Shown here piece by piece: positions 8,816-43,453 of a stretch of 43,860 bases of DNA. Position 1 is the stretch's first letter; the number at the start of each line of letters is the position of its first letter. The position numbers and the translations under genes are program-made. Below the pieces are notes generated by a model that had not been told where the DNA came from, made no database searches, and saw only the letters and a program-made list of their open reading frames with translations. The DNA comes from Verrucomicrobiota bacterium (GTDB lineage: Bacteria; Verrucomicrobiota; Verrucomicrobiia; Limisphaerales; CAIQOK01), in contig JANPGB010000592.1 in NCBI GenBank assembly GCA_031423695.1, positions 1 to 43,860 on the forward strand. Direction: 5' to 3'.

Positions 8816-8849
8816 TTGACCCGTCTCGACGCGGTTGAACCGTTTAGCT

Positions 8850-8889
8850 GGGCCGGGGTGTTTGCCTTGTGCAAATGCCCCGCCCTTTT
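8850..8889 (+). terminator. Rho-independent terminator after the 995-aa surface protein gene
   Basis: GGGCCGGGGTGTTTGC (8850-8865), loop CTTGT, then GCAAATGCCCCGCCC (8871-8885). By hand pairing this gives about 14 bp including two G-U pairs and one mismatch, followed by TTTT at 8886-8889. Confidence 0.5.
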
Positions 8890-8919
8890 ATAAAGATGTT
8901 GGAACGAAGAATTTTTGAC

Positions 8920-9768: not shown

Positions 9769-9793
9769 CCGTGCCCATGGGAAACTAAAGCGA

Positions 9794-13381: not shown

Positions 13382-13981
13382 ATGTGTATCCCGGCGTCAG
13401 TTGAAATCCCCTCCGGGTATAGTGATAACATTAAAGTTTGCATCACCCTGGCCGAATCTGTTTCTGTGTGGATCGTGTCAAAATTGCGTTCATTCATCAA
13501 ATACTGGCTGCCGGTGGCAATCTGGATGGCGCTGATCTTTTCCGGCTCTGGCGATGCCAAGTCCTCGGCCCATTCCTCGCGGATCATTGTGCCACTGATG
13601 CGGTGGTTGTTCCCACACATTTCCCAGGAGGATCTGGACCTGGTGGTTTTGCTGGTTCGCAAATGCGCCCATCTTACGGAATATGCCGTGCTCGCCTGGC
13701 TGTTCTGGCGGGCGGTGCGCCAGCCCGTGAGACCGGATGCCCGGCCTTGGTCCTGGCAGCTGGCTGGGGGCGCAGTCCTGTTCGTGGCGCTCTACGCAGC
13801 GAGTGATGAGTGGCATCAAACCTTTGTGCCGAACCGGGAAGGCTGCCTCCGCGACGTGATCATTGACACCACCGGCGCGGCGCTGGGGATGGCCGGGCTC
13901 TGGGGATGGCATCTCTGGCGCACACGCCGGCGACGCCTCATTGCTCGCGCAGTCGCAACAGTTGCACGCAGGTCTGGGTGA
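13382..13981 (+). CDS. VanZ-family membrane protein
   Basis: [18 protein letters not shown]..., [18 protein letters not shown], and [31 protein letters not shown] are VanZ-like. The start is uncertain: ATG 13382, or GTG 13466/13475 just before the first TM helix. Confidence 0.7.
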
Positions 13982-16478: not shown

Positions 16479-16646
16479 GGTCAATCAGTTTCTTTAGGCG
16501 CCGCCAGCCTAACCGCTCGCGCGCGAAAAACAAGGCTGCTGTCCGGCGCGTCCATGCCAGCGGACCTGAGAAATGAGGGCGCGTCAGCGCAGCACAGCGC
16601 GGACGGGCACACACGGTGATTGGCCATGCCGGCCCACCGTTCGTCA

Positions 16647-24175: not shown

Positions 24176-24191
24176 TGGAACGCGACTTGCG
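24176..24191 (+). promoter_or_regulatory. Sigma-54-type -24/-12 promoter upstream of the Ig-domain protein / NtrC-type activator genes
   Basis: TGGAACGCGACTTGCG versus the consensus TGGCACG-N4-TTGCW. GG is at 24177-24178 and GC at 24189-24190, which is the exact canonical spacing. It lies about 75 nt upstream of ATG 24266, in the correct orientation. Confidence 0.55.
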
Positions 24192-24265: not shown

Positions 24266-25990
24266 ATGATTACTGTTTCCAGAACCTTGCGGTTGGGTTG
24301 GTTTTTCTGCCTTTGCTTCAAGTCAGCGCTGGCGCTGGGACAGGATTTTTCCGATTCCTTCGCCAGCCGCCAACTGCTCACCGGCACCTCTGAGTTCATC
24401 ACGGGCTCGAACACCATTGCCACGGTGGAGCCTTACGAGCCAAAGCACGCTGGAAAAATTGGCGGCCATTCGGTTTGGATTTCCTGGCTGGCGCCGGACA
24501 GCGGCCTGGTCACGCTCAACACCGTTGGCAGCACATTCGACACGTTGCTGGCGGTTTATGCGCTGGAACCTGGCAACGATCCGCCGCTCGAACGCCTGCA
24601 GGAGATCGCCGCAAACGACGACAACGGCACCGCAAAAACCTCGCTGGTACAATTTGGCGCGCAGCCCGGTCAGGAGTATGAAATCGCCATTGACGGTTTC
24701 AACGGTGACCTCGGAGACATCGCATTCCAACTTGATTTCCTTTCCTCCACCAACTTTCTGCCCACGGTGTTGCGCCGCCCCAACGACGAGGCGTTGCGGA
24801 TCGGTGACCCGCTGATCCTCACGATTAATCTGATCAAGACTAAAGCACTCGAATTGAACTGGTACCTCAACAGCAATGCCGTTTATGGAGCGGATGCGCC
24901 AACGCTGGTGATCCCCAGTCTCCAAGAGACGAATCTGGGATTCTACAACCTCCGCCTGAAGGTGGAAGACGTCGGTTTTTTCACCTCTGCCATCGAGATT
25001 CAGGTCAACTCCGAGGGTCTGATCAATGTGCTGGCCCGCAACAAACTCGCGGACTCGGTCACTTCCGGCCTCGCGCCGGGTGCTGGCGGAAGTCTCAGTG
25101 GACCTTTCAAAATGTTCAACCTGACCTCGGGGGTGATTCGCGGTTACAATGGCACGCAGATTTTCAACACCAGCCTGGCCACGATTGACCCCACCGAACC
25201 GGCGCACTGCGGTGTGAACGGCGGCGCGTCGTACTGGTTTTCATACCAGGCACCAACCAACGGCGCGATGCACGTGGACACTTTCGGCAGCACCTACGAC
25301 ACGGTGCTGGCAATTTATACCTACAACGGCACTCTTTACAGCTTCACCAACCTTGTCCCCGTCACGTGCGACAACAACGGTGGTCCCGACGGACTCACCA
25401 GCGTGGTGGACTACGCCACGGACAAGAACCGCAACTATTTCATCGTCGTGGACGGTGTCAACAGCGCCCGCGGCACCGCCTACCTGAATTACCGCCTGAC
25501 CACCGGTACCCCGGCGCAAGCGCCGGTGATCGCCACCCAACCGCAATCCCTCGTGGCCGCGCGCAGCACGGCAGTGGCGTTGACGGCCGCGGCAGGCGGC
25601 ACGGCACCGCTCGCCTATCAATGGTGGCGGAATAGTTCGCGCCTGAGTCAGAAGACCAACGCCAGCCTCACTTTCCTCGATCCGCAAAGCCAGGACGCCG
25701 GCAACTACACCGTCACCGTCACAAACCTGGCCGGCGCCGCCACCAGCTCCGTCGCTAAACTCAGCGTGCTTTCCGCGCCCTATTACTACCTCAACAACGC
25801 TTCCAACCTTTTTATTTCCGCCTTTCCAGTGACACGCGGCTACCAATACGCTGTGGATTGTGCGGCCCAACCAACAACCGGATCGTGGTGGCTCAAGACC
25901 AACGCCTTTGCCGACTTTGGCGGCATCGTCTGGGTTACGAATTCAACCCGGTATTCGAACTCCATGTATTTCCGCGTGCATCTGCCATGA
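24266..25990 (+). CDS. Secreted protein: two PPC-like beta-sandwich repeats, Ig I-set domain, C-terminal FYRxxxP module
   Basis: Signal peptide MITVSRTLRLGWFFCLCFKSALALGQ. There are two paralogous units (EPYEPKHAGKIGGHSVWISWLAPDSGLVTLNTVGSTFDTLLAVYAL and DPTEPAHCGVNGGASYWFSYQAPTNGAMHVDTFGSTYDTVLAIYTY). The Ig unit is PVIATQPQSLVA...YQWWRN...DAGNYTVTVTNLAGAATS. The protein ends MYFRVHLP. Confidence 0.75.
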   Translation: MITVSRTLRLGWFFCLCFKSALALGQDFSDSFASRQLLTGTSEFITGSNTIATVEPYEPKHAGKIGGHSVWISWLAPDSGLVTLNTVGSTFDTLLAVYALEPGNDPPLERLQEIAANDDNGTAKTSLVQFGAQPGQEYEIAIDGFNGDLGDIAFQLDFLSSTNFLPTVLRRPNDEALRIGDPLILTINLIKTKALELNWYLNSNAVYGADAPTLVIPSLQETNLGFYNLRLKVEDVGFFTSAIEIQVNSEGLINVLARNKLADSVTSGLAPGAGGSLSGPFKMFNLTSGVIRGYNGTQIFNTSLATIDPTEPAHCGVNGGASYWFSYQAPTNGAMHVDTFGSTYDTVLAIYTYNGTLYSFTNLVPVTCDNNGGPDGLTSVVDYATDKNRNYFIVVDGVNSARGTAYLNYRLTTGTPAQAPVIATQPQSLVAARSTAVALTAAAGGTAPLAYQWWRNSSRLSQKTNASLTFLDPQSQDAGNYTVTVTNLAGAATSSVAKLSVLSAPYYYLNNASNLFISAFPVTRGYQYAVDCAAQPTTGSWWLKTNAFADFGGIVWVTNSTRYSNSMYFRVHLP

Positions 25991-26036: not shown

Positions 26037-27425
26037 ATGAGCGATGCCTCGCCAGACCCCTTCTCCTGCCTGATCGTGGACGACGATGCGGGGTTCGTCT
26101 CCATGCTCGCCAAAGTCGTGACCCAGGAGGGCGGGCGATCCACCCATTGCGAAAACCTCCAGGCCGCGCGGGCGGAAATCCAGCGCAACACTTTCGATCT
26201 GGTTCTCCTCGACAACCGTCTGCCAGACGGCACCGGCTACGAATTTCATCCCCAGCTCCAACGCTGCTGCCCCAACACCATCGTCCTCATGATCACCGGC
26301 GTCCCCGAACTGGCGCAGGCCATTGAACTCACCCGTAACGGCCTCTTCGATTATCTGACCAAGCCGCTGAACGTCGCCGATTTCACCGCGTCTTTGCGTC
26401 GTGCCAAACTGCGCCTCAGCCATGCCGATTCGGTGGATGCGGCTGATGAACTCATCGGCAGCTCCCCTGCCCTGCACGAAGCCATCAACACGTTGCGCCA
26501 GGTCGCCCAACATCCAACCACGCCGGTGCTTTTGCTCGGCGAAACCGGCACCGGCAAAGACCTCGCCGCGCGGATGCTGCATCGCCTCAGCTATTCGGCC
26601 AGCGCAACGCCGCCGCCGTACATCCCGCTCAACTGCTCCGCCGTGCCCGCTGAAATGTTCGAAGCCGAATTGTTCGGCAGTGAAAAAGGCGCTTACACCG
26701 GCGCGGACAAACGCCGCGTCGGCCTCATTGAAGGCGCGGAAGGCGGCACGTTGTTCCTGGACGAAATCACCGAAACGCCCCTGCCGCAACAGGCCAAACT
26801 GCTGCGTTTTCTGGAGTCCCGCGAGTATCGCCCGCTCGGCAGCAACACCATGCGGGAGTTCACTGGGCGCGTCGTGGCCGCAACGAACCGCTCCCTTCAG
26901 ACCGAGGTCCGGCAGGGACGCTTCCGTGAAGACCTGATGTTCCGCCTCAGCGTCGTCGTCGTACGCCTGCCCGCACTGCGCGACCATCCCGCCGACCTTG
27001 AACCCCTGACCGAAAAGCTGCTCGCCCAGCTCAGCGAAAAATACCGGCGCAAAAAGCTGTTCCTCAAACCGCCGGATCTGGCGGCGCTGCGCGAATATCG
27101 CTTCCCCGGCAACGTGCGTGAACTGCGCAATCTGCTTGAACGCTCCCTGCTGCGCACACCGGGGGATTCCCAATCGCTCGCCTTTGACCTCACCTGGCTG
27201 GGCAGCAGCATAGCGACCGAAGCCGCCGAGGCGCTGCCACCGCTGCCGACGGAGCGCCAACTCAGCGCCATCGAGCTCCAGGAGTATCGCCTCATCCAGC
27301 AGACCTTGCGCACGGAAGGCGGCGCGATCCGCCGCGCTGCGGCCAAGCTCGGCATCACGCATCAGGCGCTGTTGCGGCGTCTGGAAAAATGGCCGGAGCT
27401 GCGCCAGGTGCTTCCGCATTCGTGA
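26037..27425 (+). CDS. NtrC-family sigma-54-dependent response regulator (REC-AAA+-HTH)
   Basis: REC domain (LIVDDD...DLVLLDNRLPDGTG...MITG), Walker A GETGTGKD, GAYTGA loop (26688-26705), Walker B GGTLFLDEI, FREDLMFRL, and a C-terminal Fis-type HTH (AAAKLGITHQALLRRL). Confidence 0.9.
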   Translation: MSDASPDPFSCLIVDDDAGFVSMLAKVVTQEGGRSTHCENLQAARAEIQRNTFDLVLLDNRLPDGTGYEFHPQLQRCCPNTIVLMITGVPELAQAIELTRNGLFDYLTKPLNVADFTASLRRAKLRLSHADSVDAADELIGSSPALHEAINTLRQVAQHPTTPVLLLGETGTGKDLAARMLHRLSYSASATPPPYIPLNCSAVPAEMFEAELFGSEKGAYTGADKRRVGLIEGAEGGTLFLDEITETPLPQQAKLLRFLESREYRPLGSNTMREFTGRVVAATNRSLQTEVRQGRFREDLMFRLSVVVVRLPALRDHPADLEPLTEKLLAQLSEKYRRKKLFLKPPDLAALREYRFPGNVRELRNLLERSLLRTPGDSQSLAFDLTWLGSSIATEAAEALPPLPTERQLSAIELQEYRLIQQTLRTEGGAIRRAAAKLGITHQALLRRLEKWPELRQVLPHS

Positions 27426-27576: not shown

Positions 27577-27656
27577 CTGGTAGGGCGCATCACTCCGTGC
27601 GCGCCGATTCCGACAAGACTGGCCCCGGCGCGCACGGAGTGACGCGCCCTACCAGC
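27577..27656. repeat. 80-bp palindromic (REP/MITE-like) element: 30-bp stem with one mismatch, 19-nt loop
   Basis: CTGGTAGGGCGCATCACTCCGTGCGCGCCG (27577-27606) is the reverse complement of 27626-27655, except for A27589 opposite C27643. The loop is ATTCCGACAAGACTGGCCC. Confidence 0.85.
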
Positions 27657-27709: not shown

Positions 27710-27725
27710 CGGCACTTCGACTGCT
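27710..27725 (+). promoter_or_regulatory. Sigma-54-type -24/-12 promoter upstream of the FecR/TPR/barrel gene
   Basis: CGGCACTTCGACTGCT has GG at 27711-27712 and GC at 27723-27724, the canonical spacing. It sits only about 20-35 nt before the candidate starts (ATG 27743 or 27758), hence the lower confidence. Confidence 0.45.
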
Positions 27726-27742: not shown

Positions 27743-30700
27743 ATGTCCCGAACCAAAATGTTATTGAAGGCCCGCGCCATTTTTTTCGTGGTGGTGGCCT
27801 TCGCGGTTTGCCTGACTGCCAACCCAAGCCAGGCCCAGGCGCCCTCCGCCCCCGCTGCAAACGACTTTGCCAGCCGGCTTGTCGGATTCGCCGGCAAAGT
27901 CGAAGTCACGCTCCCAGCCACCAACGACTGGCGGGCCGCGATCACCAACCAGCTGCTGCATCCCGGCGACCGTCTTCGCACCGTCGCCGACAGCCGCGCC
28001 ACGCTGCTTCTGTCCGACCGCAGCGTCATTCGCGTCAACCAGTCCACGCTGATTGAAATCCAGCCACCGACTCAACCTGCGCGCCGCCGTTTCAGCCTCA
28101 AGCACGGCGCGCTCTACTTTCTGAATCGTGAGAAACCCGCGGCCGTCGAGTTTGAAACCCCGCTCGCCACCGGCGCGATTCGTGGCACGGAATTTGTGCT
28201 CACCGTCGCCGAGTCCGACAACACGACGATGCTCGCGCTGCTCGACGGCGCGGTTCAACTCCGCACCCCCGCTGAGCAACTCAATCTCGCCAGCGGCCAG
28301 CAGGCGCTGGTGCAAGCCGGCCAGCCCGCCAAGCTCACTGCGGTGCTGCCCGCCGCAAATCTCATTCAGTGGTGCTTTTATTATCCCGGCATTCTCAACC
28401 CCGCCGACCTATTGTTCACTGATGCCGAAAAAACTGAGCTGACAAAATCTCTCGCCGCCTACGCGGGCGGTGATTTGCTCGCAGCCCTTGCCGAAGCGCC
28501 CGCAGACATCCTGGCGGGGTCCGCTGCAAGGCAACTTTACTGCGCGGCCCTCAAGCTCGGTGTGGGTCAGGTGGAATCTGCTGAAGTGCTGCTCGCGCCG
28601 TTGACGAATGCACCGCTCGCCACCGCACTCCGCGAACTCATCGCGGCGGTCAAGTTTCAGGAGATCACCACGCCCGGCACGCCCGCGACCAGCAGCGAGT
28701 GGCTCGCCCGTTCCTACTATCTCCAATCGCGTTCACAACTTCCCGCCGCGCTCGCTGCGGCGAAGCGTGCGACCGAACTCACTCCAAGTTTCGGCTTCGC
28801 CTGGGCGCGCGTGGCGGAACTGGAATTTGGTTTCGATGACCGCCGCGGCGCCCGCGCCGCATTGCAGCGCGCGCTTCAGTTGTCGCCCCATCATGCCCAG
28901 GCCGTCGCGCTCGAAGGCTTCCTCGCGCTCGACGAAAATCATCCGCGCGCCGCGCTGGATAAGTTTGATCGCGCGCTTGCGCTCGACGGCGCATTGCCCA
29001 ACGCCTGGCTCGGTCGGGCGCTGGCGCATGAACAACTCGGCGACACTGGAGCCGGCCAGCGTGAACTCCAGACTGCCGCCGCGCTTGAACCGAATCGCGG
29101 ATTGTTTCGCAGCTACCTCGGCAAGGCGTGGAGCCAGTCGGGACTGGACCAGCTGGCGGAAAAGGATTTCGCCCGCGCGCAGGCGCTCGACCCCGCCGAT
29201 CCGACCGCGTGGCTTTATTCCGCATTGCATCGCCACCAGACGCATCAGATCAACGACGCCGTGCGCGACCTGGAACACTCGCGCGAGTTGAACGACAACC
29301 GCAGCGTGTTCCGCTCGCGCCTGCAACTGGACCGCGACCGCGCCGCCCGCAGCGCGGATCTCGCGGGGATTTACGATGCGGCGGGCATAGTCGAAGTCAG
29401 CGAGCGCGCCGCCAGCCGCGCCGTGCAGGATTCCTATTCTGATTTTGCCGGGCACCTGTTTCTCGCCCAAAGCCTGGAAGGCCGCGAAGATCCGCACCGG
29501 TTTGATCTGCGTTTTGAAACGGCGCGGGAAAGCGAGCTGCTCCTCGCGAACCTGCTCGCGCCGCCGGGCGGCGGCAATCTCTCGCAACTGCTCCCGCAGC
29601 AGGACCACCTCCAATACTTCGACAGGCGCCCGATTGGATTCAGCTCGTTGACTGAATACCGCAGCGGCGGGGACTGGAGCCAATCCGCCACGGTCTTCGG
29701 CCATGCCAAAGGCTTCAGCTACGCGCTCGACACGCAATACGTTTCCGAAAACGGCCAGGGTCCAAACCGCGATCTGGAGGCCCGCCAGTTTTCCTTCCAA
29801 GCCAAACAGCAGATAACGCCCAACGACAGCGCCTACTTTCAGGCGAGTGATTTTCGCGGCGAGAGCGGCGATGTGGCACAGCATTACGATCCGGCGAAGG
29901 TCATCGCCGGCCTGCGGGCCAGGGAGAAGCAGAGTCCGAATTTGTTCCTTGGCTGGCACCACGAATGGTCGCCAGGCAGCCACACTTTGCTGTTGTTCGC
30001 GCGGCTGACCGACCGGCTCGCTTTGACCAATCCACAACCGAGCGTGCTCTTCATGCGGCAGAACGGGACCGCCCTCACCAGCGTGCAACCCGACCCATTC
30101 TTCACGTTGCAACAGGAGAGCAAATTCACGCTTTATTCCGCCGAGGCGCAGCAGATCTGGGAATCCTCCCGGCACGCGCTCATTATCGGCGGCCGCTATC
30201 AACAGGGTTCGGTGGACACGCATTCGACGCTGACCCGCATTTTTGGCGCTACGGAAGATCAAACCGTTTCGCCGTCCCTGGAACGTCTTAATGGCTACGG
30301 CTACTACCAATGGCGGCCCGACGCCGCCTTCCACCTGACGGCCGGCCTGAGCTACGACGAGATTGCGTTCCCGCGAAATGTGGATCTCCCGCCGATTCGC
30401 GGCGAGGAGGAACGCCGCTCGCTGTTTGGCCCGAAGGTGGGCTTCACCTTGCGGCCATGGCGCGATGGCTGGCTGCGCGGCTCGTGGACCCGATCGCTCG
30501 GCGGACTTTATTTCGACAACAGCATCCGGCTGGAGCCCGCGCAGGTGGCCGGCTCCACCAGCGCATTTCGCAGTCTGCTTCCCGAATCCACCGAAGGCCT
30601 CGTGCCCGGTTCGCAGATCGAGACTTGGACGCTGGGTTTCGACCAGTCGTTGCCAAGTGCAACGTATTTTGGCCTCGGCGCAGAGCTTCTCAAATCCGAC

Positions 30701-31240
30701 GGCGCGCGCGACGTGGGCGCGTTCACGAACTCCATTGCCTTCATTCCCGTGCCCGACGGGCCGGCAGCGACACGGCAGACGCTCAACTTTGAGGAGCTGA
30801 GTTATTCAGCCTACGTGAACCAGCTCATCGGCCGATGCTGGTCCGCCGGCGCGCGCTATCGCGTCAGTCAGGCGGAACTCACCGGACGTTTCCCGGAACT
30901 GGCGGGCGTCGCCGGAGTCAACGCTTTGAATCAGGACGAACGCTCGGTGCTGCATCAGGCGCAGATCTTCCTGCTGTTCAACCATCCGAGCGGCGTCTTC
31001 GGCGGCTGGTCCTCGTCGTGGTACCGACAGAGCAATGTGGGCTACACGCCGGATCGTCCCGGTGACAACTTCTGGCAGCATGACATTTTCGCCGGGTACC
31101 GCTTTCCGCACCGGCACGCGGAAATCCGGCTCGGCGTGCTGAACCTGACCGACCAAGACTGCCAGCTGAACGAGTTGAACCTGCATTCCGAACTCGCACG
31201 GCACCGCACCTTCACCGCGTCGTTGCGGCTGAACTTTTAA
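27743..31240 (+). CDS. Secreted fusion protein: FecR-like domain + TPR repeats + C-terminal outer-membrane beta-barrel (TonB-receptor-like C-terminus)
   Basis: 1165 aa with signal peptide AIFFVVVAFAVCLTANPSQAQA. The FecR-like region is GKVEVTLPATNDWRAAI...GDRLRTVADSRATLLLSDRSVIRVNQSTLIEI...TPLATGAIRGTEF. TPR-like helical repeats span roughly residues 300-560. The C-terminal half has alternating beta-strand patterns and ends LGVLNLTDQDCQLN...FTASLRLNF, an OMP-style terminal Phe. Confidence 0.85.
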   Translation: MSRTKMLLKARAIFFVVVAFAVCLTANPSQAQAPSAPAANDFASRLVGFAGKVEVTLPATNDWRAAITNQLLHPGDRLRTVADSRATLLLSDRSVIRVNQSTLIEIQPPTQPARRRFSLKHGALYFLNREKPAAVEFETPLATGAIRGTEFVLTVAESDNTTMLALLDGAVQLRTPAEQLNLASGQQALVQAGQPAKLTAVLPAANLIQWCFYYPGILNPADLLFTDAEKTELTKSLAAYAGGDLLAALAEAPADILAGSAARQLYCAALKLGVGQVESAEVLLAPLTNAPLATALRELIAAVKFQEITTPGTPATSSEWLARSYYLQSRSQLPAALAAAKRATELTPSFGFAWARVAELEFGFDDRRGARAALQRALQLSPHHAQAVALEGFLALDENHPRAALDKFDRALALDGALPNAWLGRALAHEQLGDTGAGQRELQTAAALEPNRGLFRSYLGKAWSQSGLDQLAEKDFARAQALDPADPTAWLYSALHRHQTHQINDAVRDLEHSRELNDNRSVFRSRLQLDRDRAARSADLAGIYDAAGIVEVSERAASRAVQDSYSDFAGHLFLAQSLEGREDPHRFDLRFETARESELLLANLLAPPGGGNLSQLLPQQDHLQYFDRRPIGFSSLTEYRSGGDWSQSATVFGHAKGFSYALDTQYVSENGQGPNRDLEARQFSFQAKQQITPNDSAYFQASDFRGESGDVAQHYDPAKVIAGLRAREKQSPNLFLGWHHEWSPGSHTLLLFARLTDRLALTNPQPSVLFMRQNGTALTSVQPDPFFTLQQESKFTLYSAEAQQIWESSRHALIIGGRYQQGSVDTHSTLTRIFGATEDQTVSPSLERLNGYGYYQWRPDAAFHLTAGLSYDEIAFPRNVDLPPIRGEEERRSLFGPKVGFTLRPWRDGWLRGSWTRSLGGLYFDNSIRLEPAQVAGSTSAFRSLLPESTEGLVPGSQIETWTLGFDQSLPSATYFGLGAELLKSDGARDVGAFTNSIAFIPVPDGPAATRQTLNFEELSYSAYVNQLIGRCWSAGARYRVSQAELTGRFPELAGVAGVNALNQDERSVLHQAQIFLLFNHPSGVFGGWSSSWYRQSNVGYTPDRPGDNFWQHDIFAGYRFPHRHAEIRLGVLNLTDQDCQLNELNLHSELARHRTFTASLRLNF

Positions 31241-31292: not shown

Positions 31293-33998
31293 GTGCCGAG
31301 CCGACTCGAATCAAAACATCCGCGCAGCCTGACCTTGGCAGGCCTCATCGTTGTGCTGGCGCTCGTGAGCGGGTGGCTGCTCCTGCCGGAGTCGCGACCG
31401 GGCGAGGTCCTCGCACGCGCGAGTTACGACTGGTCACAATCCTTCCTCCCACCCGTCCCGCTGAGCAACTCTCCGGTGGTCCTGGTTTATCTCGACCTTG
31501 ATTCACACCTCCGCGAAAAACAAAATCCCGCCGAACCCTGGAGTCGCGCCCTGCACGCGCGACTAGTTCGCCGGCTCACCGAGGCGGGGGCCAGGGCCAT
31601 CGGGTTCGACATCATCTTCGCCGGGCCGAGCGCGGACCTGGCGGCGGATCGGGAGTTGGCCGAGGCCATTCACGCCAACGGCCGCGTCGTTCTCGCCGCC
31701 GAAATCAACCGCTCCAGCCGCGGCACCGCGCAAGTGGAAGGCATCAAGTCGCTGCAGCTCTCCATGCCCGCAAAAACCTTCCTCGACGCCGCCGCCGCGT
31801 GGGGCGTGGCCAACGCGCGCGTGGACGACGACTTCATTGTGCGGCGGCATTTCCACGGTTTTCCTGAACAGCACCAGCCCAGTCTCACGCTGGCAACGGC
31901 GCAATTGATCGGCTTGCCGCTCGCGTTGGCCGACACCGATCTGCTGCCGGCAAAATGGCTTCGTTACTACGGCCGGGCGCTGGCGTTGCCACACGTCAGT
32001 TACAGCAGCGCCCTCCATCGCGACGAGGTGAAAGATGAATTCTTCCGCGACAAGATAGTCTTGGTCGGCGCGCGACCGATGGCCGGGACATTTGGGGAGC
32101 GCAAAGATGAATTTCGCAATCCGCTGTCGGCGTGGGGCGACCAGGAACTCTTCATGCCCGCCGTGGAAGTTCACGCCACGCAACTGCTCAACCTGATGCA
32201 CGGAGACTCGCTGCGTCGCCTGCCGCCACTGGCGGAGTTGTTGATGCTCGCGCTGACGGCGGGGCTGTTTGGCTGGCTGCTGTATCGTTTCCGGCCCTTC
32301 CCGGCGGCGGGAATGGCGTTGGCGGGCGAAGTCGTGGTTTTCGCCGTCGTTGCATTTGCGCTGCCGGCGCAACGGGTTTGGTTTCCGTGGCTGATCGTCA
32401 GCGCGGTGCAAATCCCCATCGCGCTTGCGGCCTCGGTGCTTTACCAATCGCTCGAATGGTATCGGCAGAAACGGCGGCTCGAGGCGCAACGCCGCGCCGA
32501 CGAGGTGAAGATTCGCGAGCAAGCCGCGCTCATCGAAAAGGCGCAGGACGCCATTCTGGTTCAGGATTTGCAGGGCCAAATCAACTATGCCAATCCAAGC
32601 GCGGAAAAGCTTTTCGGCTGGAGCGCCAGCGAGCTTCAGCAGGAGGGAGCGGCGCGGCGGCTGTTCGCTCCGAGTCACAAACAGTTTGCCGAGGCGATCC
32701 AAGCCACCCACGCCACCGGCGAATGGCAGGGTGAATTGCGGCCGTCCACGCGCGCCGGCCGCACGCTCATCGTGGAAAGCCGCGGCACGCTCATCAAAGA
32801 CGAATGCGGCCGGGCGATTTCCGTGCTGCTCATCAACACCGATGTCACCGAGCGGAGACAGCTCGAAGCCGAATCGCTCCGGGCGCAGCGCCTGGAAAGC
32901 ATCGGCGCGCTGGCCGGCGGGATGGCGCATGATTTGAACAATGCGCTGTCGCCGATTTTGATGGGCCTGCAACTGTTGCAGAAGGAGCGGCAGGACGAAG
33001 AGACGCGGCGCATGCTGGCGGTAATGGAGTCCAACACGCACCGCGGCGCGGATATGGTCAAGCAGGTGTTGCTCTTTGCGCGCGGACGCGACGGCGAGAA
33101 AGAACCGCTCGCCCTCGGCAGCCTGGTCCACGAAATGGAGCGCATCGTGCGGCAGACGTTTCCGAAAGCGATCAACGTCGCCGCACTTGTGCCCGCCGAC
33201 CTCTGGCCCGTGCTCGGCAACGCGACGCAACTGCATCAGGTATTGCTCAACCTTTGCGTCAACGCCCGCGATGCGATGCCGCGCGGCGGTGAACTCACCC
33301 TGGCCGCCGATAACGTCGAACTGACACCCGCCGAGGCCACGGGGATTCCGCAGGGCGCGCCCGGACGCTATGTCATGCTGCTCGTGTCGGACACGGGGAA
33401 CGGGATTGCGCCGGAAGTTATGCCGCGCATCTTCGAGCCGTTCTTCACGACGAAACCGGTCGGTGAGGGAACGGGCCTCGGCCTTTCGACCAGCGCGCGG
33501 ATTGTCAGCCAGCACGGCGGTTTCATGAATGTGAAAAGCGAGCCGGGCCGCGGCGCGACCTTCGAGCTTTACCTGCCATGCGCCACGATTGCGCCGACGC
33601 CGGAAACTCAACGTGCGAGTTTTGCCGAAGCACCGCGTGGCGGCGGCGAGATGATACTGCTGGTGGACGACGAACAGGCGCTCCGAGAAATGATTTCCCG
33701 CACGCTCACGGACCAGGGTTATCAAGTCACCACGGCAACTCACGGCGCGGAAGCGCTGCTGCACTTGAACCACTCAGGGGACTCCGTCCAACTGGTGCTG
33801 CTGGATCAGGAAATGCCCGTGATGGACGGCCGCGCAACCTTGACCGCCCTCCGCACCCGCTGGCCAAAGCTCCCCGTCATTCTGATGAGTGGTAAAATCG
33901 GGCCGGAAGCATTGCCGCACACCACCACGCTGGGAAAACCGTTTCAACTCCATCAACTGCTGCAAGCGGTCGCCGCCCAGTGCCACGTCGGCAAATAG
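31293..33998 (+). CDS. CHASE2-domain hybrid sensor histidine kinase (TM-CHASE2-3TM-PAS-HisKA-HATPase-REC)
   Basis: GTG start with an N-terminal TM helix (LTLAGLIVVLALVSGWLLL). The periplasmic CHASE2-like region is VVLVYLDLDS...IGFDIIFAGPS...IVLVGA, followed by three TM helices. PAS is AQDAILVQDLQGQINYANPSAEKLFGW, and the NtrB-type H-box is GMAHDLNNALSPI. It also has LLNLCVNARDAM and GEGTGLGLS, and a C-terminal REC (ILLVDDE...LVLLDQEMPVMDG). Confidence 0.9.
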   Translation: MPSRLESKHPRSLTLAGLIVVLALVSGWLLLPESRPGEVLARASYDWSQSFLPPVPLSNSPVVLVYLDLDSHLREKQNPAEPWSRALHARLVRRLTEAGARAIGFDIIFAGPSADLAADRELAEAIHANGRVVLAAEINRSSRGTAQVEGIKSLQLSMPAKTFLDAAAAWGVANARVDDDFIVRRHFHGFPEQHQPSLTLATAQLIGLPLALADTDLLPAKWLRYYGRALALPHVSYSSALHRDEVKDEFFRDKIVLVGARPMAGTFGERKDEFRNPLSAWGDQELFMPAVEVHATQLLNLMHGDSLRRLPPLAELLMLALTAGLFGWLLYRFRPFPAAGMALAGEVVVFAVVAFALPAQRVWFPWLIVSAVQIPIALAASVLYQSLEWYRQKRRLEAQRRADEVKIREQAALIEKAQDAILVQDLQGQINYANPSAEKLFGWSASELQQEGAARRLFAPSHKQFAEAIQATHATGEWQGELRPSTRAGRTLIVESRGTLIKDECGRAISVLLINTDVTERRQLEAESLRAQRLESIGALAGGMAHDLNNALSPILMGLQLLQKERQDEETRRMLAVMESNTHRGADMVKQVLLFARGRDGEKEPLALGSLVHEMERIVRQTFPKAINVAALVPADLWPVLGNATQLHQVLLNLCVNARDAMPRGGELTLAADNVELTPAEATGIPQGAPGRYVMLLVSDTGNGIAPEVMPRIFEPFFTTKPVGEGTGLGLSTSARIVSQHGGFMNVKSEPGRGATFELYLPCATIAPTPETQRASFAEAPRGGGEMILLVDDEQALREMISRTLTDQGYQVTTATHGAEALLHLNHSGDSVQLVLLDQEMPVMDGRATLTALRTRWPKLPVILMSGKIGPEALPHTTTLGKPFQLHQLLQAVAAQCHVGK

Positions 33999-37236: not shown

Positions 37237-38373
37237 ATGAAAGCCAGCTTCAGCAATTTATTCACGCTCGCCGTCGCGGTGTCGCTCGTCGCGAGCGCCG
37301 GGGCGAAGGCGGAACCACGGTTCAGAACCCAAAAACCGCTCGTGCAAGTCGCCATCCTGATCGACACCAGCAACAGCATGGACGGACTCATCGGCCAGGC
37401 GAAAAGCCAGCTGTGGAAGATCGTCAACGAGTTCAACCACGCGCGGCAGGATGGCCAGATGCCCGAGGTGCAGGTCGCGCTGTTTGAATACGGTAACAAC
37501 AGCTTGTCCGCGCAGGCAGGCTGGATTCGCAAGGTGTCGGACTTCACGACCGACCTCGACTTGATCTCGGAAAAACTCTTCGCGTTGAGAACCAACGGCG
37601 GCGAGGAATACTGCGGCTGGGTCATCAAGGACGCGCTCGACCGGCTGGAGTGGAGTCCTTCGCCGCGGGCCTACAAGGCCATCTTCATCGCGGGCAACGA
37701 GCCGTTCACACAGGGCCCGGTGGATTACACCGACCCGTGCAAGGCCGCCCGGGCGCGCGGCATCATTGTAAACACGATCCATTGTGGCGACGAGCGCACG
37801 GGAGTGGACACGATGTGGCGCGACGGCGCGCGGCTGGCGGACGGGAAATTTCTGGTCATCAACCAGGATCGGGCCGTGGCCTATGTCGAAGCGCCGCAGG
37901 ACAAGGAGATCGCAAAATTGAGCAGCGACTTGAACAGCACTTATCTCGCCTATGGTCGCGATGGTGCGGAGAGTGTTGTGCGGCAGGAAATGCAGGACCG
38001 GAACGCCGCCACCGTGGCATCGGCGGGCGCGGTGGTGGCGCGTGCGGTGGCCAAGTCGTCGGCGCATTACAGCAACAGCAAATGGGACTTGGTGGACGCC
38101 GCCAAGGACAAGGATTTCAAACTGGATGCCTTGAAGGAGGCCGAACTGCCCGCGGCGATGCAGGCGTTGCCGCCCGCCGCGCGCAAGGAGTTCGTTGAGG
38201 AGAAAGCGCAGGAGCGCGGCGAGTTGCAGACCAGGATCAACACGCTCAATGCCGCGCGCGAAAAATACGTCGCCGCGAAGATGAAGGAAATCGTCACCAC
38301 GAACACGCTCGACAGTGTCGTCATCACCACCGTGCGCGAACAGGCGCGCACGCGGCAATTCACGTTCGATTGA
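37237..38373 (+). CDS. Secreted von Willebrand factor type A (vWA) domain protein
   Basis: Signal peptide (LFTLAVAVSLVASAGAKA), MIDAS DxSxS (AILIDTSNSMDG), ...RTNGGEEY..., IFIAGNEP and VNTIHCG. The C-terminal third is a charged helical region. Confidence 0.8.
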   Translation: MKASFSNLFTLAVAVSLVASAGAKAEPRFRTQKPLVQVAILIDTSNSMDGLIGQAKSQLWKIVNEFNHARQDGQMPEVQVALFEYGNNSLSAQAGWIRKVSDFTTDLDLISEKLFALRTNGGEEYCGWVIKDALDRLEWSPSPRAYKAIFIAGNEPFTQGPVDYTDPCKAARARGIIVNTIHCGDERTGVDTMWRDGARLADGKFLVINQDRAVAYVEAPQDKEIAKLSSDLNSTYLAYGRDGAESVVRQEMQDRNAATVASAGAVVARAVAKSSAHYSNSKWDLVDAAKDKDFKLDALKEAELPAAMQALPPAARKEFVEEKAQERGELQTRINTLNAAREKYVAAKMKEIVTTNTLDSVVITTVREQARTRQFTFD

Positions 38374-38396
38374 GCCATCCCCCCGCCCTGCCCTCT

Positions 38397-38433
38397 CCGC
38401 ACCGCCGGCCACCGACGGTGCGGAATTTTTTTT
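38397..38433 (+). terminator. Rho-independent terminator after the vWA gene
   Basis: CCGCACCG (38397-38404) pairs perfectly with CGGTGCGG (38416-38423) across an 11-nt loop, followed by AA and eight T (38426-38433). Confidence 0.7.
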
Positions 38434-38630
38434 GGCGCAGCCTCCCACGCACTCAGCCACATCCGGAGAAACGGTGAGCCAAAAAAAATCTGGGCAAAAC
38501 CCGCCTTCACTTCCATCAGCGGTTCGCTATCGGACCGGGTTGGTCCGGAACAAACACGTCCAGCGTCGCCTTCATAAAGATGCAGCGGGCGAAACCGAGA
38601 AATTTTGGATTTTTCCAGTGCCTGCTAAGT

Positions 38631-38646
38631 TGGCATGTGAACTGCA
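38631..38646 (+). promoter_or_regulatory. Sigma-54-type -24/-12 promoter upstream of the Ig adhesin / DUF3570 / ApbE genes
   Basis: TGGCATGTGAACTGCA versus the consensus TGGCACG-N4-TTGCW. GG is at 38632-38633 and GC at 38644-38645. It lies about 55 nt upstream of ATG 38699 and about 200 nt downstream of the vWA terminator. Confidence 0.6.
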
Positions 38647-38698
38647 ATCTCCTGACCTACGAACCGAATTCACAATTGCGCTCTCAGCTTATAGTTGC

Positions 38699-41600
38699 AT
38701 GCAGTATTATTTTTATCGTCCTGTCCACGTCAGATTGCCCTCCTCTCCCGCGCGCTACGGCAGGGAACAGATTCTATTCGCCATACTGTGGATGGTTTGC
38801 GTTGTTTCTGTTCCCGCCGCGCCGATGATGGAGGAGGGATTCAATTATCCCAACGGCAGCAACCTGGCCCAGAACGCTCCGTGGGCCGGCGGCAGCGGCG
38901 CCTCCCTAAGCGTGGTGAGCGGCAATCTGTGGCTCCCGGGTTTGGGCGAGACTGCGCCCGCCGGCAACATGCTGAAAGTTGGCGGCGGCGTAAGCCGGAC
39001 GGTGTATCGGAATTTTGCCAGCACTCCGGTGACCAATGGCGCGCTGTATTTCTCGGCATTGATCAAATGCACGCTGCCGCCAACAAATTCCCAGCCAATG
39101 GCTTTTTTCCAAACCAGCGGCTCCACCGATTTTACCGCCAGCGACAATCCGATGTCGCTGTATATTCTCCAAGCGAACAACGGGTATTGCTTTCGCGTTG
39201 CCGAACACGGGGAAAACTCCCAATTATCAAAAACACTGGCCGTCAACACCACGCATTTGATCGTGGTAAAATATGGTTTTCGAGTCGGCAATCAGGATCG
39301 AGTCATTCTGTTTATTGATCCCATACCCGGCGGGAATGAGCCAACGACACCGGATGCCGCCATCTCTGACGTAATGTTTCCCAATTTACGGGTGATGGGG
39401 TTTTTCTCACCAAGCCTTGCCAGCCAGGGCAGCTGGAATTTTGACACCTTGCGCATCGGCACCAACTGGGCGGACGTGACGCCGGTGCCGACAGCTTTGA
39501 TTCTCAGTGGACCGCAGGACCAGGCGGCCTGTTTCGGCAAAGGCCTGACCTTCAGCGTCGCGGCGCTGGGCACGGCCCCGTTCAGTTATCATTGGCGGAC
39601 CAACGGCGTGTTCGTGCCTGGCGCGACCAATGCGGTATTCGCCGTTCCTAATCCCACCGCCCGCGACGCGCTGAATGGCTTTGACGTGGTGGTGCAGGAC
39701 GCGTTTGGCTCCGCCACCAGCCGGCTGGCAGGAATCACGTTCAGCACCAACCCTGTCGCCATCCTGACCCCGCCAACAAATCAGGTGGTCTTGCCTGGTG
39801 TTGCGAGCGTCACATTCGAAGTGGCGGTGTCCGGCGATGCGCCGGTGAGCTTTCAGTGGCGCGCGAACGGCACGGCTATCGCCAACGCGACCAACAACAG
39901 CTACTCACTCGTCAATCCAACCATGGCGGATCAAACCACCGCCTTCGATGTGGTGGGGGTCAATCCGTGCGGTGCGGTGACCAGCAGCCCGCCGGTGTTC
40001 GCCTTGTTTCCAAATGCGTTTTACGCCGCCACCGACAATGGCCCGGGCTTTTTTGCGGGAGAAATCCTGACCCTGATCAACCGGAGCGGCATGACCATCA
40101 ATGTCTGGTCGTCGCCCAATCTCAGTCGGCCGCTTCCGCTATGGGATGCGGAAGGTCCACTGTTTGAGGTGCCGCTGAATGACGGCAGCGGCAACAGCCA
40201 GTATTCCCTGAACGTCGTGCCCGCCGCCTCGCCAACTTACTACGTCGCCGGAACCGGCGTGGACTGGCCGTACTTGTCGCCGATTCCCGTGGTGTGGCTG
40301 ACGACCAGTGACTATGTCACCTTTAGTTTGCAGGGCACGAACAAGATTGCGGATGCGTCGGGCGTGTTGAGCGATCCGGTTCCTCCGGGGATCACGCAAG
40401 GTCCGGCGAGCCAGAATGTCTGGCTGGGAACCAACGCGCAATTCACGGTCGCCGCCAGTGGTTCGGGGCCTTTCTCCTACCAATGGTGGTTTAACGCGGC
40501 GCCCCTTCCTGGCGCGAACCTGGCCGCCTTCAAACTGACCAGTGTTTCAAGGACCAACTCGGGTGATTACTACGTCGTGGTGACGAGCGCTTTCGGCAGC
40601 ATCACCAGCAGCATCGCCACGTTAGGGGTCATCACCCCCTTCTATGCCGCGTACGACAACGGCCCGGGATTTTTCATTGGAGAAATCCTGACGCTCAACA
40701 ATCCGAGCGGGATGATTATCAATGTCTGGTCGTCATCCACTCTAAGCCAGCCGCTCCCGCTCTGGAATTCGGAAGGTGAGATGTTTCAGGTGCCGTTGAA
40801 TGACGGCAGCGGCACCAGCCAATACTCCCTGAACGTCGTGCCGGCCGCCTCGCCGACTTATTACATCGCCGGCATCTCGGTCTCCGGGCCGTATCCGCCC
40901 GGCATCCCGGTCACCTCGCTTACGACGGACGACTATGTGAACTTTGCGGTGGCGCAAAACCAACTGCCGGTCGGCCCCGGCGGCCTGTTGGCGCTGCCCG
41001 CCCCGCCGGCGCTCACCCAGCAACCCGCCCGCCTGGCAGTCATCGCCGGCAACCCGGCGGAATTTCTCGCCACCGCCACCGGGAGCGGGCTGCTCTATTT
41101 CCAGTGGCGCTTCAACACAAACATCGCGGTCGAGGGCGGCACCAATTCGAGCCTCTTGATTACCACGAGCACCCCGGCCCACGCCGGAAATTATTTCGTG
41201 GTGGTGACGAACAACTATGGTAGTGCGACCAGCCAGGTAGCCGCATTGACAGTGCTGCCGCCGCCTGCACTCCTCGGCACCCAAACCGCCGCCGGCTTTC
41301 AACTCACGGGCGCGGGTGTACCCGGCGACATGTATTTCGCCCTGGCGGCGACCAATCTGAATCCGCCGGTGACCTGGCAGACCGTGGCGACGAATGTGGC
41401 TGACACAAACGGATTGATTCAATTCGTCGATGGTGCCACCCAGATCTCGACGATGAAATTTTATCGGCTGGCGTTCCCCTCCGTGTTGCGAATGCCCCCC
41501 GTGATTCTTCAGCAGCCGACCAACCGCTCGGTGCTGACCGGAACTTCGCCGGGATTCAGCGTAATCGCCGCCGGTCAGGCCGTGCTGAGCTATCAATGGT

Positions 41601-41977
41601 TTGCCCGCTCCAACACGACGCTGGCCGGGGCGACAAACTCCACGCTCACTCTGGGGCAGACCAGCATGCTCAACAACGGCAGGCAATATCAGGTTGTGGT
41701 AACCAACAGCTGGGGCAGCGTCACGAGCAGCGTGGCCACGGTCACGATCCTGCCCCTGCCGCAGTTGCAGGCGCAGTCGCTTTCCAACCGGCTGCAACTC
41801 ACCGCCCAGGCCGTGCCGGGCGACGCCTATCGCCTGCAGGCCAGCACCAGCCTGACGCCTCCCGTGGCGTGGACCACCCTCGCCACCAATTTGGCGGACG
41901 CCCTGGGCTGGGTTCAGTTTTCGGTCACAAATATCCGCACCGCGCCCGTCCGCTTTTACCGCCTCGCAACTCCGTGA
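38699..41977 (+). CDS. Giant secreted Ig-repeat adhesin-like protein (ConA/LamG-like N-domain, five or more Ig I-set units, duplicated novel domain, two FYRLxxP modules)
   Basis: The open frame starts at 38315, but that stretch spans the vWA stop, a terminator and the promoter. ATG 38699 gives MQYYFYRPVHVRLPSSPARYGREQILFAILWMVCVVSVPAAP. Ig units are marked by PFSYHWRTNG, VSFQWRANG, FSYQWWFN, LYFQWRFN and LSYQWFAR, each followed by a G.Y.VVVTN-type strand. Confidence 0.8.
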   Translation: MQYYFYRPVHVRLPSSPARYGREQILFAILWMVCVVSVPAAPMMEEGFNYPNGSNLAQNAPWAGGSGASLSVVSGNLWLPGLGETAPAGNMLKVGGGVSRTVYRNFASTPVTNGALYFSALIKCTLPPTNSQPMAFFQTSGSTDFTASDNPMSLYILQANNGYCFRVAEHGENSQLSKTLAVNTTHLIVVKYGFRVGNQDRVILFIDPIPGGNEPTTPDAAISDVMFPNLRVMGFFSPSLASQGSWNFDTLRIGTNWADVTPVPTALILSGPQDQAACFGKGLTFSVAALGTAPFSYHWRTNGVFVPGATNAVFAVPNPTARDALNGFDVVVQDAFGSATSRLAGITFSTNPVAILTPPTNQVVLPGVASVTFEVAVSGDAPVSFQWRANGTAIANATNNSYSLVNPTMADQTTAFDVVGVNPCGAVTSSPPVFALFPNAFYAATDNGPGFFAGEILTLINRSGMTINVWSSPNLSRPLPLWDAEGPLFEVPLNDGSGNSQYSLNVVPAASPTYYVAGTGVDWPYLSPIPVVWLTTSDYVTFSLQGTNKIADASGVLSDPVPPGITQGPASQNVWLGTNAQFTVAASGSGPFSYQWWFNAAPLPGANLAAFKLTSVSRTNSGDYYVVVTSAFGSITSSIATLGVITPFYAAYDNGPGFFIGEILTLNNPSGMIINVWSSSTLSQPLPLWNSEGEMFQVPLNDGSGTSQYSLNVVPAASPTYYIAGISVSGPYPPGIPVTSLTTDDYVNFAVAQNQLPVGPGGLLALPAPPALTQQPARLAVIAGNPAEFLATATGSGLLYFQWRFNTNIAVEGGTNSSLLITTSTPAHAGNYFVVVTNNYGSATSQVAALTVLPPPALLGTQTAAGFQLTGAGVPGDMYFALAATNLNPPVTWQTVATNVADTNGLIQFVDGATQISTMKFYRLAFPSVLRMPPVILQQPTNRSVLTGTSPGFSVIAAGQAVLSYQWFARSNTTLAGATNSTLTLGQTSMLNNGRQYQVVVTNSWGSVTSSVATVTILPLPQLQAQSLSNRLQLTAQAVPGDAYRLQASTSLTPPVAWTTLATNLADALGWVQFSVTNIRTAPVRFYRLATP
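40019..41260 (+). repeat. Intragenic tandem duplication (2 x 621 nt) inside the adhesin gene
   Basis: The unit starting FYAATDNGPGFFAGEILTLINRSGMTINVWSS (40019) recurs as FYAAYDNGPGFFIGEILTLNNPSGMIINVWSS (40640), exactly 621 nt (207 codons) later. By eye, the first ~240 nt of each unit are roughly 80 percent identical at the nucleotide level. Confidence 0.8.
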
Positions 41978-41989
41978 TTTGGATGACGC

Positions 41990-43453
41990 ATGTCCTTGTA
42001 TCCCGCCAACCCAGCTACCGCCGAAACCGGGGACCCCGTGCCGCAGTCGTCACGCGCGTTTCAACGCGCGCGACGATTGCCACAGTTCCCAGGCAAGCGA
42101 GACCTACTCATGCTGTTGCTGGTGGTGGCGCTCATTGCCGGACGAATCGGACGTGCGTCCGCCGCGGAAAACGAAATGGGTTACCGACGGGAGTTTTACC
42201 GCGAGGACGACAACCGGATCAGCGTGGACACAGACTCCGCGTTCTGGGACGTGGGGCTCAGCGCGCATGTTCGTTTGCGCGGGACCTACACGCTCGATTC
42301 CATCTCCGGCGCGACCCCGACCGGCGCGCCGCCGCAGTCGCAGTGGCCGTTCGTCACCTACGACCGCCTCTACAAAAACGCCTATGCGCAGGCTTACACC
42401 GGCGCGTTCAACCAGTTTGTTGCCGCCAACCAGATCTTCGTGGATCAAGGCTACCAGACTTACCAGCAGATGACCAACGTTGCGGCGATGGTAGCCCAGA
42501 GCACAGCCCCAGGCGTCGCTAACAATAGTGCCGGCGCCTCGTATCGCGGCATCACCAACAATCCAAACTTTCGGAACCAGTCCGTTCCGCTGACGCAGAT
42601 GCATGATCGGCGACAGGGTTTTTCCATCGAGGTTCCGGTCGCGTGGGGCATTCATGAGCTGACGCCCTCGTTTTCCTACAGCGACGAGAGCGACTACGAA
42701 TCATTTGGCGGCGCCTTGGTTTATTCCCTCGCGCTAAACAAAAAGAACACCACGCTGACCGCTGGTTACTCCCACCATTCCGACGATGTCCGGGACGAAA
42801 ATTTCAAGTGGCAGGACAAGACGTCGGACGAATTTCTGCTCGGCGTGGTGCAACTCCTCAATCCCAAATCCTACCTGACATTCAACCTGACATTCGGCAA
42901 CGACGCCGGCTATCTGAGCGATCCTTACCGGGCCGTGATGGTCATCGGCAACCCCGACTTTCTTCAGTCCAATCCGGACGACGCGGCACTATTCGTCGAA
43001 AAGCGTCCGCGCAGCCGGATCAAAGGGGTCGCCCATCTTTCCTACACGCGCTTTATCGACCGCTTCAACGGCAGTCTGGAAACCAGCTACCGTTACTTTC
43101 ACGATTCCTGGGGCATTGCCTCCCACACCCTGACGCTGGACTGGCACCAAAAGCTGGGCCGGAACATCGTGCTGAGCCCGTCGTTCCGCTACAGCAATCA
43201 AAGCGCGGCGGACTTTTATTACGTGCTGGTGCCGGACTACGCCGGGCTGCCGGCTTATTACTCTTCCGACTATCGCCTGACGCATTTTGAAAGTTTCGGG
43301 CTGGGCCTGAATTTCACCTGGCGGATCACGCCTTTCCTTTCCCTGGACTTGAGCTATCTGCGTGACGTAATGCACGGACTGGACGGCATCACTTCGCAGA
43401 GCGCCTTTCCTTCCGCCAACGTCGGCAGCGCAGGACTAAGAATATGGTTTTAA
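41990..43453 (+). CDS. DUF3570-family outer-membrane beta-barrel protein with ApbE flavinylation motif
   Basis: Signal-like LLMLLLVVALIAGRIGRASAAE, then EFYREDDNRISV and LDSISGATPTG (DSISGAT at 42296-42316). Strand-like repeats run throughout, and the OMP-type C-terminus is AGLRIWF. An alternative start is ATG 42110. It begins 12 nt after the adhesin stop. Confidence 0.75.
   Translation: MSLYPANPATAETGDPVPQSSRAFQRARRLPQFPGKRDLLMLLLVVALIAGRIGRASAAENEMGYRREFYREDDNRISVDTDSAFWDVGLSAHVRLRGTYTLDSISGATPTGAPPQSQWPFVTYDRLYKNAYAQAYTGAFNQFVAANQIFVDQGYQTYQQMTNVAAMVAQSTAPGVANNSAGASYRGITNNPNFRNQSVPLTQMHDRRQGFSIEVPVAWGIHELTPSFSYSDESDYESFGGALVYSLALNKKNTTLTAGYSHHSDDVRDENFKWQDKTSDEFLLGVVQLLNPKSYLTFNLTFGNDAGYLSDPYRAVMVIGNPDFLQSNPDDAALFVEKRPRSRIKGVAHLSYTRFIDRFNGSLETSYRYFHDSWGIASHTLTLDWHQKLGRNIVLSPSFRYSNQSAADFYYVLVPDYAGLPAYYSSDYRLTHFESFGLGLNFTWRITPFLSLDLSYLRDVMHGLDGITSQSAFPSANVGSAGLRIWF

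Follow-up and report, generated by a model that had tools for sequence, protein, structure and literature searches.

A candidate NsrA-type trans-envelope receptor with a plug-less TonB-receptor-type barrel, encoded beside a CHASE2 hybrid kinase in Verrucomicrobiota

What is the role of a protein that carries a FecR domain, a helical arm and an outer-membrane type of beta-barrel in one chain, and is encoded directly before a kinase with a CHASE2 sensor domain? The question is raised by the gene at 27743-31240 (+ strand) of a 43,860-nt stretch of DNA from a Verrucomicrobiota bacterium (GenBank assembly GCA_031423695.1, contig JANPGB010000592.1, positions 1 to 43,860; this whole stretch is called the window below). 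Our analysis points to an NsrA-type trans-envelope signal receptor that feeds the neighboring CHASE2 kinase, which we consider probable while leaving real room for doubt. Sinorhizobium meliloti NsrA is described as an outer-membrane protein whose beta-barrel takes up residues 600-1200 and which in a bioassay reacts to the addition of extracellular proteins (uL2; PMC7529298), and as being needed for signal transduction to CyaK and CyaD1/D2, which are adenylate cyclases with CHASE2 (PMC7529298, PMC13001267).

The open reading frame (ORF) encodes 1165 aa at exactly the position where a sequence-only reading of this DNA had placed a single secreted polypeptide. Public gene calls start at M6, five codons downstream (P0001, 1160 aa, 100% identical). 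The protein has four parts from N- to C-terminus, namely a signal peptide, a FecR domain, about 400 residues of tetratricopeptide repeat (TPR)-like helices, and a beta-barrel of about 534 residues. The gene and its parts are as follows.

27743..31240, + strand: candidate NsrA-type receptor gene, whole (ORF of 1165 aa; alternative start 27758 in public gene calls)
27743..27835, + strand: signal peptide, residues 1-31 (basic n-region, hydrophobic core, SQA/QA)
27872..28342, + strand: FecR-type beta-sandwich, residues 44-200 (PF04773 at 76-172)
28352..29557, + strand: helical/TPR arm, residues 204-605 (Pfam TPR matches at about 320-520)
29558..29635, + strand: conserved arm-barrel linker, residues 606-631 (26 residues; mean conservation 0.81)
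29636..31237, + strand: plug-less TonB-receptor-type beta-barrel, residues 632-1165
30500..30613, + strand: inter-strand segment of 38 residues, residues 920-957 (conservation 0.83)
31208..31237, + strand: C-terminal beta-signal strand with terminal Phe (TFTASLRLNF)

The link to NsrA is carried by full-length homology. Searching plasmids with the window protein (tblastn) returned a match on pSymB to a 1202-aa 'FecR domain-containing protein'; the same pSymB gene is annotated as nsrA in CP140934.1, and we take the identity of NsrA from this GenBank annotation and from secondary papers. S. meliloti NsrA contains PF04773 at residues 66-160 together with TPRs, and its gene is directly followed by ORFs with CHASE2 and Guanylate_cyc domains. 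By pairwise BLAST, the FecR domains of the two proteins share 30% identity (E=3e-16) and the TPR regions are collinear. When a profile of the window family was aligned with a profile of 22 rhizobial NsrA homologs using hhalign, the match extended over 1022 columns (99.7%, E=1.4e-26; 33-1172 vs 24-1215), while a barrel-only profile against the single NsrA sequence gave a weaker match (46%, E=2e-4), collinear over 397 columns. Because the profile alignment runs from end to end, the window protein is a remote full-length homolog of NsrA. It shows every testable feature of the NsrA family: a signal peptide followed by FecR, a TPR region, a C-terminal barrel ending in an aromatic residue, full-length homology, and a CHASE2 neighbor.

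The two proteins belong to the same length class (1202 vs 1165 aa) and share the order of parts (signal peptide, PF04773 FecR domain, TPR region, C-terminal barrel of about 600 aa), and both genes lie immediately upstream of a gene for a CHASE2 inner-membrane signaling protein (CyaK on pSymB). They differ in that the identity between them is just about 22-30%, in that NsrA is from Alphaproteobacteria and the window protein from Verrucomicrobiota, in that NsrA is partnered by a cyclase with Clr whereas the partners here are a CHASE2 hybrid histidine kinase and a sigma54 regulator, and in that the module studied here includes an additional conserved secreted Ig-like protein. The fused architecture is thus already known from NsrA, and the novelty implied for it by the sequence-only reading was overstated. 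We note that in S. meliloti ml59 the CHASE2 and cyclase parts downstream of nsrA on pSymB (L081, 10480-12428) lie in two reading frames with no gene listed, which could mean that cyaK is frameshifted, is a pseudogene or was misassembled.

The N-terminus of the window protein contains one hydrophobic segment (residues 4-31) with K/R residues before it and SQA/QA after it, and hydropathy gives no second transmembrane helix in the receptor. In the AlphaFold2 model, a helix at residues 3-25 is followed by a disordered stretch at 26-40. These features fit export via a cleavable signal peptide, in agreement with the sequence-only reading, the call being made by a hydropathy rule of thumb and not by a trained predictor. 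Lipoprotein anchoring was also considered and was rejected, lipobox-like motifs being found in just 6 of 79 sequences. The FecR-like beta-sandwich proposed for residues 40-200 or so was recovered: PF04773 spans its full profile at residues 76-172 (Pfam; E=5e-14, 53 bits vs a cutoff of 24), so that FecR-family similarity of the N-terminus is established, and AlphaFold2 models the sandwich at residues 44-200. Several Pfam TPR families match at residues of about 320-520. The modeled helical region takes up residues 204-605, so the TPR-like helices that had been proposed are present, although their length is about 400 residues and not about 250.

An anti-sigma factor of the FecR kind would have an anti-sigma domain, an inner-membrane helix and an extracytoplasmic function (ECF) sigma partner; the protein has none of these and does not belong to that class. 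Only the signal-peptide-like segment at residues 4-31 precedes FecR at residue 44, in the place of an N-terminal anti-sigma domain, and Pfam finds no ECF sigma factor among the 24 window ORFs scanned.

For the C-terminal half, the AlphaFold2 model of the receptor (built on 79 homologs; mean predicted local distance difference test score, pLDDT, 86.8; predicted template modeling score, pTM, 0.83) contains 23 DSSP strand elements in residues 632-1164, an odd number that leaves the parity uncertain. All 50 matches listed by Foldseek against the PDB are 22-stranded TonB-dependent transporters, with E down to 2e-14, about 600 aligned columns and a TM-score of about 0.5 (normalized to the target); they include FhuE, OprC, FoxA, FpvA and FecA (1kmo, 1kmp). 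By itself, the window protein has no Pfam or NCBIfam match in its last 570 or so residues, and the barrel family is therefore established via orthologs, model and profiles. Among 45 orthologous C-termini, 36 match PF00593 (best E=2.8e-15), and full-length homologs at 52-58% identity exceed the PF00593 gathering cutoff (P0075 with 37 bits at profile positions 30-436, P0089 with 53.5 bits). A profile of the C-terminal family matches the TonB-dependent receptor 5nec (E=2.6e-4) in an alignment that takes in the last strands; PDB sequence searches with the full-length protein or profile were dominated by TPR proteins, and it was the C-terminal profile alone that reached a TonB-dependent receptor. 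The last residue is F or Y in 45 of 46 loci.

Pfam finds no Plug (PF07715) in the query, in five full-length homologs, in the 45 C-termini or in the Pfam annotations precomputed for 120 homologs, and neither STN nor POTRA in the query or the homologs scanned, in line with the absence of plug-like and POTRA-like regions noted from the sequence by eye. For the TonB box no dedicated motif search was made, and the plug, its normal host, is absent. In the model, helices directly precede the barrel. The barrel belongs to the superfamily of TonB-dependent transporter barrels, as a divergent member without a plug, so the resemblance to a TonB-receptor barrel that had been seen in the strand-rich end holds, by way of orthologs, Foldseek and 5nec, with the window copy alone below threshold and the strand count not exact. 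Without a plug, the protein is not a canonical TonB-dependent transporter.

Three neighboring genes on the same strand make up a module with the receptor gene.

24266..25990, + strand: secreted Ig-like protein of 574 aa with several beta-sandwich domains (Pfam, model, synteny)
26037..27425, + strand: sigma54-dependent response regulator with REC, AAA+ sigma54 activator and HTH_8 domains (Pfam)
31293..33998, + strand: hybrid histidine kinase with CHASE2, PAS, HisKA, HATPase and REC domains (Pfam)

The Pfam match in the adjacent kinase bears out the claim that a CHASE2 protein is encoded next door. Its CHASE2 domain (residues 24-325) lies between a first transmembrane segment (11-34) and a transmembrane cluster (312-385), and is therefore periplasmic. 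The kinase is a hybrid with a C-terminal REC and has no Hpt domain. At 13938-16484 (- strand), 15 kb upstream, another hybrid kinase is encoded, which has an Hpt domain as well as three REC matches. In the AlphaFold2 model of the Ig-like protein (pLDDT 86.7), beta-sandwich (Ig-like/PPC-like) domains follow one another in a row; 383 homologs were found at E<=1e-5, with no functional name among the 120 listed, and the Foldseek matches are all of a generic multi-Ig kind. The protein could act as a co-receptor, or be a cargo or an output that is regulated.

The receptor family is large, with about 500 loci confirmed in species-representative genomes, and the best 80 of these are nearly all labeled Verrucomicrobiota. 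Searching with the barrel only gave 1207 cluster representatives at E<=1e-3; the majority are 1100-1260 aa in length and carry the barrel C-terminally. Synteny was counted in the 34 loci with enough flanking DNA: the CHASE2 gene is found in 29 of them (85%), the Ig-like gene also in 29, the sigma54 regulator gene in 19, and all four module genes in 17. There are two main gene orders, Ig-RR-receptor-CHASE2 (IRFC; 8 loci) and CHASE2-RR-Ig-receptor (CRIF; 7 loci), RR being the response regulator, and co-occurrence despite such rearrangement argues for a functional unit. In more distant members (44-49% identity), the downstream CHASE2 protein is an adenylate/guanylate cyclase in 10 of the 10 loci checked, as in the NsrA-CyaK pair. 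The output of the partner thus changes from kinase to cyclase, and the constant link is that between the receptor and the CHASE2 domain. Many genomes have several paralogous receptor-CHASE2 pairs (e.g. L002 and L039 in one metagenome-assembled genome (MAG), and L001 and L045 in another). Six loci (L014, L018, L040, L043, L055 and L057) carry the verrucomicrobial type of module in MAGs titled Bifidobacterium or Bifidobacteriaceae, and are probably mislabeled or mis-binned.

Promoter-like motifs offer a candidate connection between the regulator and the rest of the module. Two sigma54-type motifs of the -24/-12 kind stand before module genes in the window.

24176..24191, + strand: promoter-like motif TGGAAC-N5-TTGCG, upstream of the Ig-like gene
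27710..27725, + strand: promoter-like motif CGGCAC-N5-CTGCT, 18 nt upstream of the receptor ATG

Across related loci, 24 of 72 receptor genes have such a motif upstream, against 2.3 expected, and so do 22 of 38 Ig-like genes, against 1.2 expected, a position-specific enrichment of 10- to 18-fold; the expectation is the overall motif rate in the loci and is approximate because the loci are mostly coding sequence. A scan over the whole window showed no overall enrichment (25 matches vs 29 expected), and only the position-specific test across loci is informative. The enrichment suggests that the adjacent sigma54 regulator may drive the receptor and Ig-like genes, i.e. that the module could be autoregulated. 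Between the regulator and receptor genes we also observed an inverted repeat (27577-27655; 30-nt arms, 97% complementary, 19-nt loop), which lies 55-130 nt upstream of the sigma54-like promoter and is unique in the window. Its sequence is not conserved, the related loci having none or unrelated inverted repeats there, and it may be a terminator or an enhancer-binding site.

Put together, these observations lead to the following proposal. The barrel would sit in the outer membrane, and the helical arm would project across much of the periplasm and present the FecR domain to the CHASE2 domain of the kinase. The sequence-only reading had placed FecR at or under the outer membrane; since it forms the tip of an arm of about 400 residues, a position near the inner membrane is more likely. 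An event at the surface or barrel, e.g. binding of a ligand that might be captured with the help of the Ig-like protein, would alter the FecR-CHASE2 contact and switch the kinase. Phosphate would then pass to the sigma54 regulator, perhaps via a separate Hpt protein, and the regulator would activate the sigma54 promoters before the Ig-like gene and the receptor-kinase operon, giving positive autoregulation. Signaling is probably TonB-independent since there is no plug. The contact with the neighboring CHASE2 domain, which had been raised as a possibility, gains support as a prediction from the synteny in 85% of the well-flanked loci, from the pairing being kept across the change from kinase to cyclase, and from the full-length NsrA homology.

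A wider form of this proposal is more doubtful than the reading of the single locus, and we put it forward only tentatively. NsrA-type receptors would be the general, long-missing input of CHASE2 proteins: a TonB-dependent transporter that lost its plug would have become a TonB-independent single polypeptide, whose rigid TPR arm presents FecR to CHASE2 sensors whatever their output. In Verrucomicrobiota, the paralogs would have expanded along with a dedicated secreted Ig-like co-receptor, and the plug would be replaced by segment 920-957 or by the final arm helices.

Several points weigh against an NsrA-type receptor that signals to the kinase. The barrel of the window protein is below Pfam significance by itself. 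Since the kinase has no Hpt domain, the path to the sigma54 regulator has a gap that a separate Hpt would have to fill, and the regulator gene itself is found in just 19 of the 34 loci. The FecR-CHASE2 contact is a prediction. Finally, the connections between the barrel strands are short and highly conserved, with almost no length variation (79 sequences, 51-84% identity), which is unusual for a ligand-binding surface receptor.

This last point bears most on an alternative with the same parts and another input, in which the arm and FecR hold the CHASE2 kinase and the switch responds to disturbed outer-membrane integrity, barrel assembly or membrane spacing, a logic analogous to that of RcsF/IgaA. 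We regard such an envelope-state sensor as unlikely. The near length-invariant barrel connections, with the arm-barrel linker and segment 920-957 as the most conserved pieces, argue against diversifying recognition of surface ligands, and a module found in hundreds of verrucomicrobial species looks housekeeping-like. Segment 920-957 is the most conserved part of the barrel (0.83), with several invariant residues and no length variation in the 79 sequences; counting back from the C-terminal strand puts it on the extracellular side, with the parity left uncertain by the 23 DSSP elements. On the other hand, the presence of several paralogous receptor-CHASE2 pairs per genome suits multiple signals better, and the homolog NsrA responds to added extracellular uL2 (PMC7529298).

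The secreted Ig-like protein, encoded in 29 of the 34 well-flanked loci, makes it conceivable that the plug-less barrel of the 22-strand type and the TPR arm form a conduit that translocates this protein or a polymer, with FecR coupling export to CHASE2 signaling. Such a conduit would be comparable to PgaA, BcsC and PelB, which are TPR-barrel exporters, or to Slam. Like the window protein, these have a periplasmic TPR region at the N-terminus joined to an outer-membrane barrel at the C-terminus; their barrels are smaller and of other families, their operons serve polymer synthesis or lipoproteins, and they have no FecR. The sigma54-type motifs before both the receptor and the Ig-like genes agree with this idea, and with no detectable plug the lumen could be wide. 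We nevertheless find it quite unlikely, as the barrel is homologous to TonB-dependent transporters and not to exporter porins, no polysaccharide synthase genes adjoin the module, the invariant feature is adjacency to CHASE2, and the S. meliloti nsrA locus lacks an Ig-like neighbor, yet NsrA works in signal perception. Neither an exporter-porin barrel nor a polymer synthase operon was found: the barrel matches TonB-dependent transporters only, and the neighbors are signaling genes. Very improbable, in our view, is a divergent TonB-dependent importer of a nutrient to which FecR and TPRs are mere regulatory decoration. Its PF00593-superfamily barrel matches TonB-dependent transporter structures, and some databases do name NsrA homologs 'TonB-dependent receptor', but the plug, which carries the TonB box and gates transport, is missing, as is STN, from the query and all homologs scanned; Pfam finds no TonB, ExbB, ExbD or substrate-catabolism genes among the 24 window ORFs, and the conserved neighbors are signaling proteins.

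The reading as an NsrA-type receptor can also be set beside other systems in which FecR domains take part in signaling. FecA/FecR/FecI likewise uses a TonB-receptor-type barrel and a periplasmic FecR-family domain to carry a surface signal to the inner membrane, and FecA structures (1kmo, 1kmp) are among the fold matches. Here, by contrast, the barrel and FecR are in one polypeptide, FecR is tethered to the outer membrane instead of the inner one, plug, STN, anti-sigma domain and ECF sigma factor are all missing, and the receiver is a CHASE2 kinase. The Burkholderia 'BiofilmReg' operon and the Pseudomonas aeruginosa PA4035-type pair have the same order of regulator, secreted FecR protein and CHASE2 histidine kinase, with a periplasmic FecR domain (PMC5192318). 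Their FecR protein is small, LysM-anchored to peptidoglycan and not to the outer membrane, and has neither TPR nor barrel, and their regulator is of the OmpR/CreB type whereas that of the window is of the NtrC/sigma54 type; LysM has no Pfam match in the window receptor. That Burkholderia operon (response regulator, LysM-FecR protein, CHASE2 kinase; PMC5192318) and the CHASE2 cyclase clusters of Campylobacterota (PMC9239204) are independent precedents for a FecR-CHASE2 pairing. A reported CHASE2 system with cAMP output, compared by description only, also combines FecR, TPR and CHASE2 with an outer-membrane protein in what is presumed to be one pathway, with the TPR part as a separate protein.

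CHASE2 is a widespread extracytoplasmic sensor on kinases and cyclases, and its ligands are given as unknown by Pfam, as quoted in PMC5192318. With FecR on an arm anchored in the outer membrane, the question of what CHASE2 senses becomes a testable protein-protein hypothesis. The NsrA architecture, so far studied in one rhizobium as a plant-signal receptor for cAMP signaling, is that of a large family found across phyla, in which the CHASE2 domain is what stays the same about the partner, be it part of a kinase or of a cyclase. It also illustrates clearly how a TonB-receptor barrel can be put to new use once the plug is gone. New are the connection with a CHASE2 hybrid kinase and with a sigma54 regulator, the conservation of the Ig-like partner, and how large the family is in Verrucomicrobiota; none of the three was found described in the literature searched. 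For experiments in Verrucomicrobiota, the locus offers a compact four-gene module with predicted sigma54 reporter promoters.

Other genes of the window include a large Ig-domain protein of 1220 aa (38315-41977, + strand) with a DUF3570 protein directly after it (41990-43453, + strand), which may be a second surface-protein pair. At 5828-10648 (+ strand), a 995-aa protein with a weak Calx-beta match is followed by two ORFs with N-terminal methylation (pilin-like) motifs.

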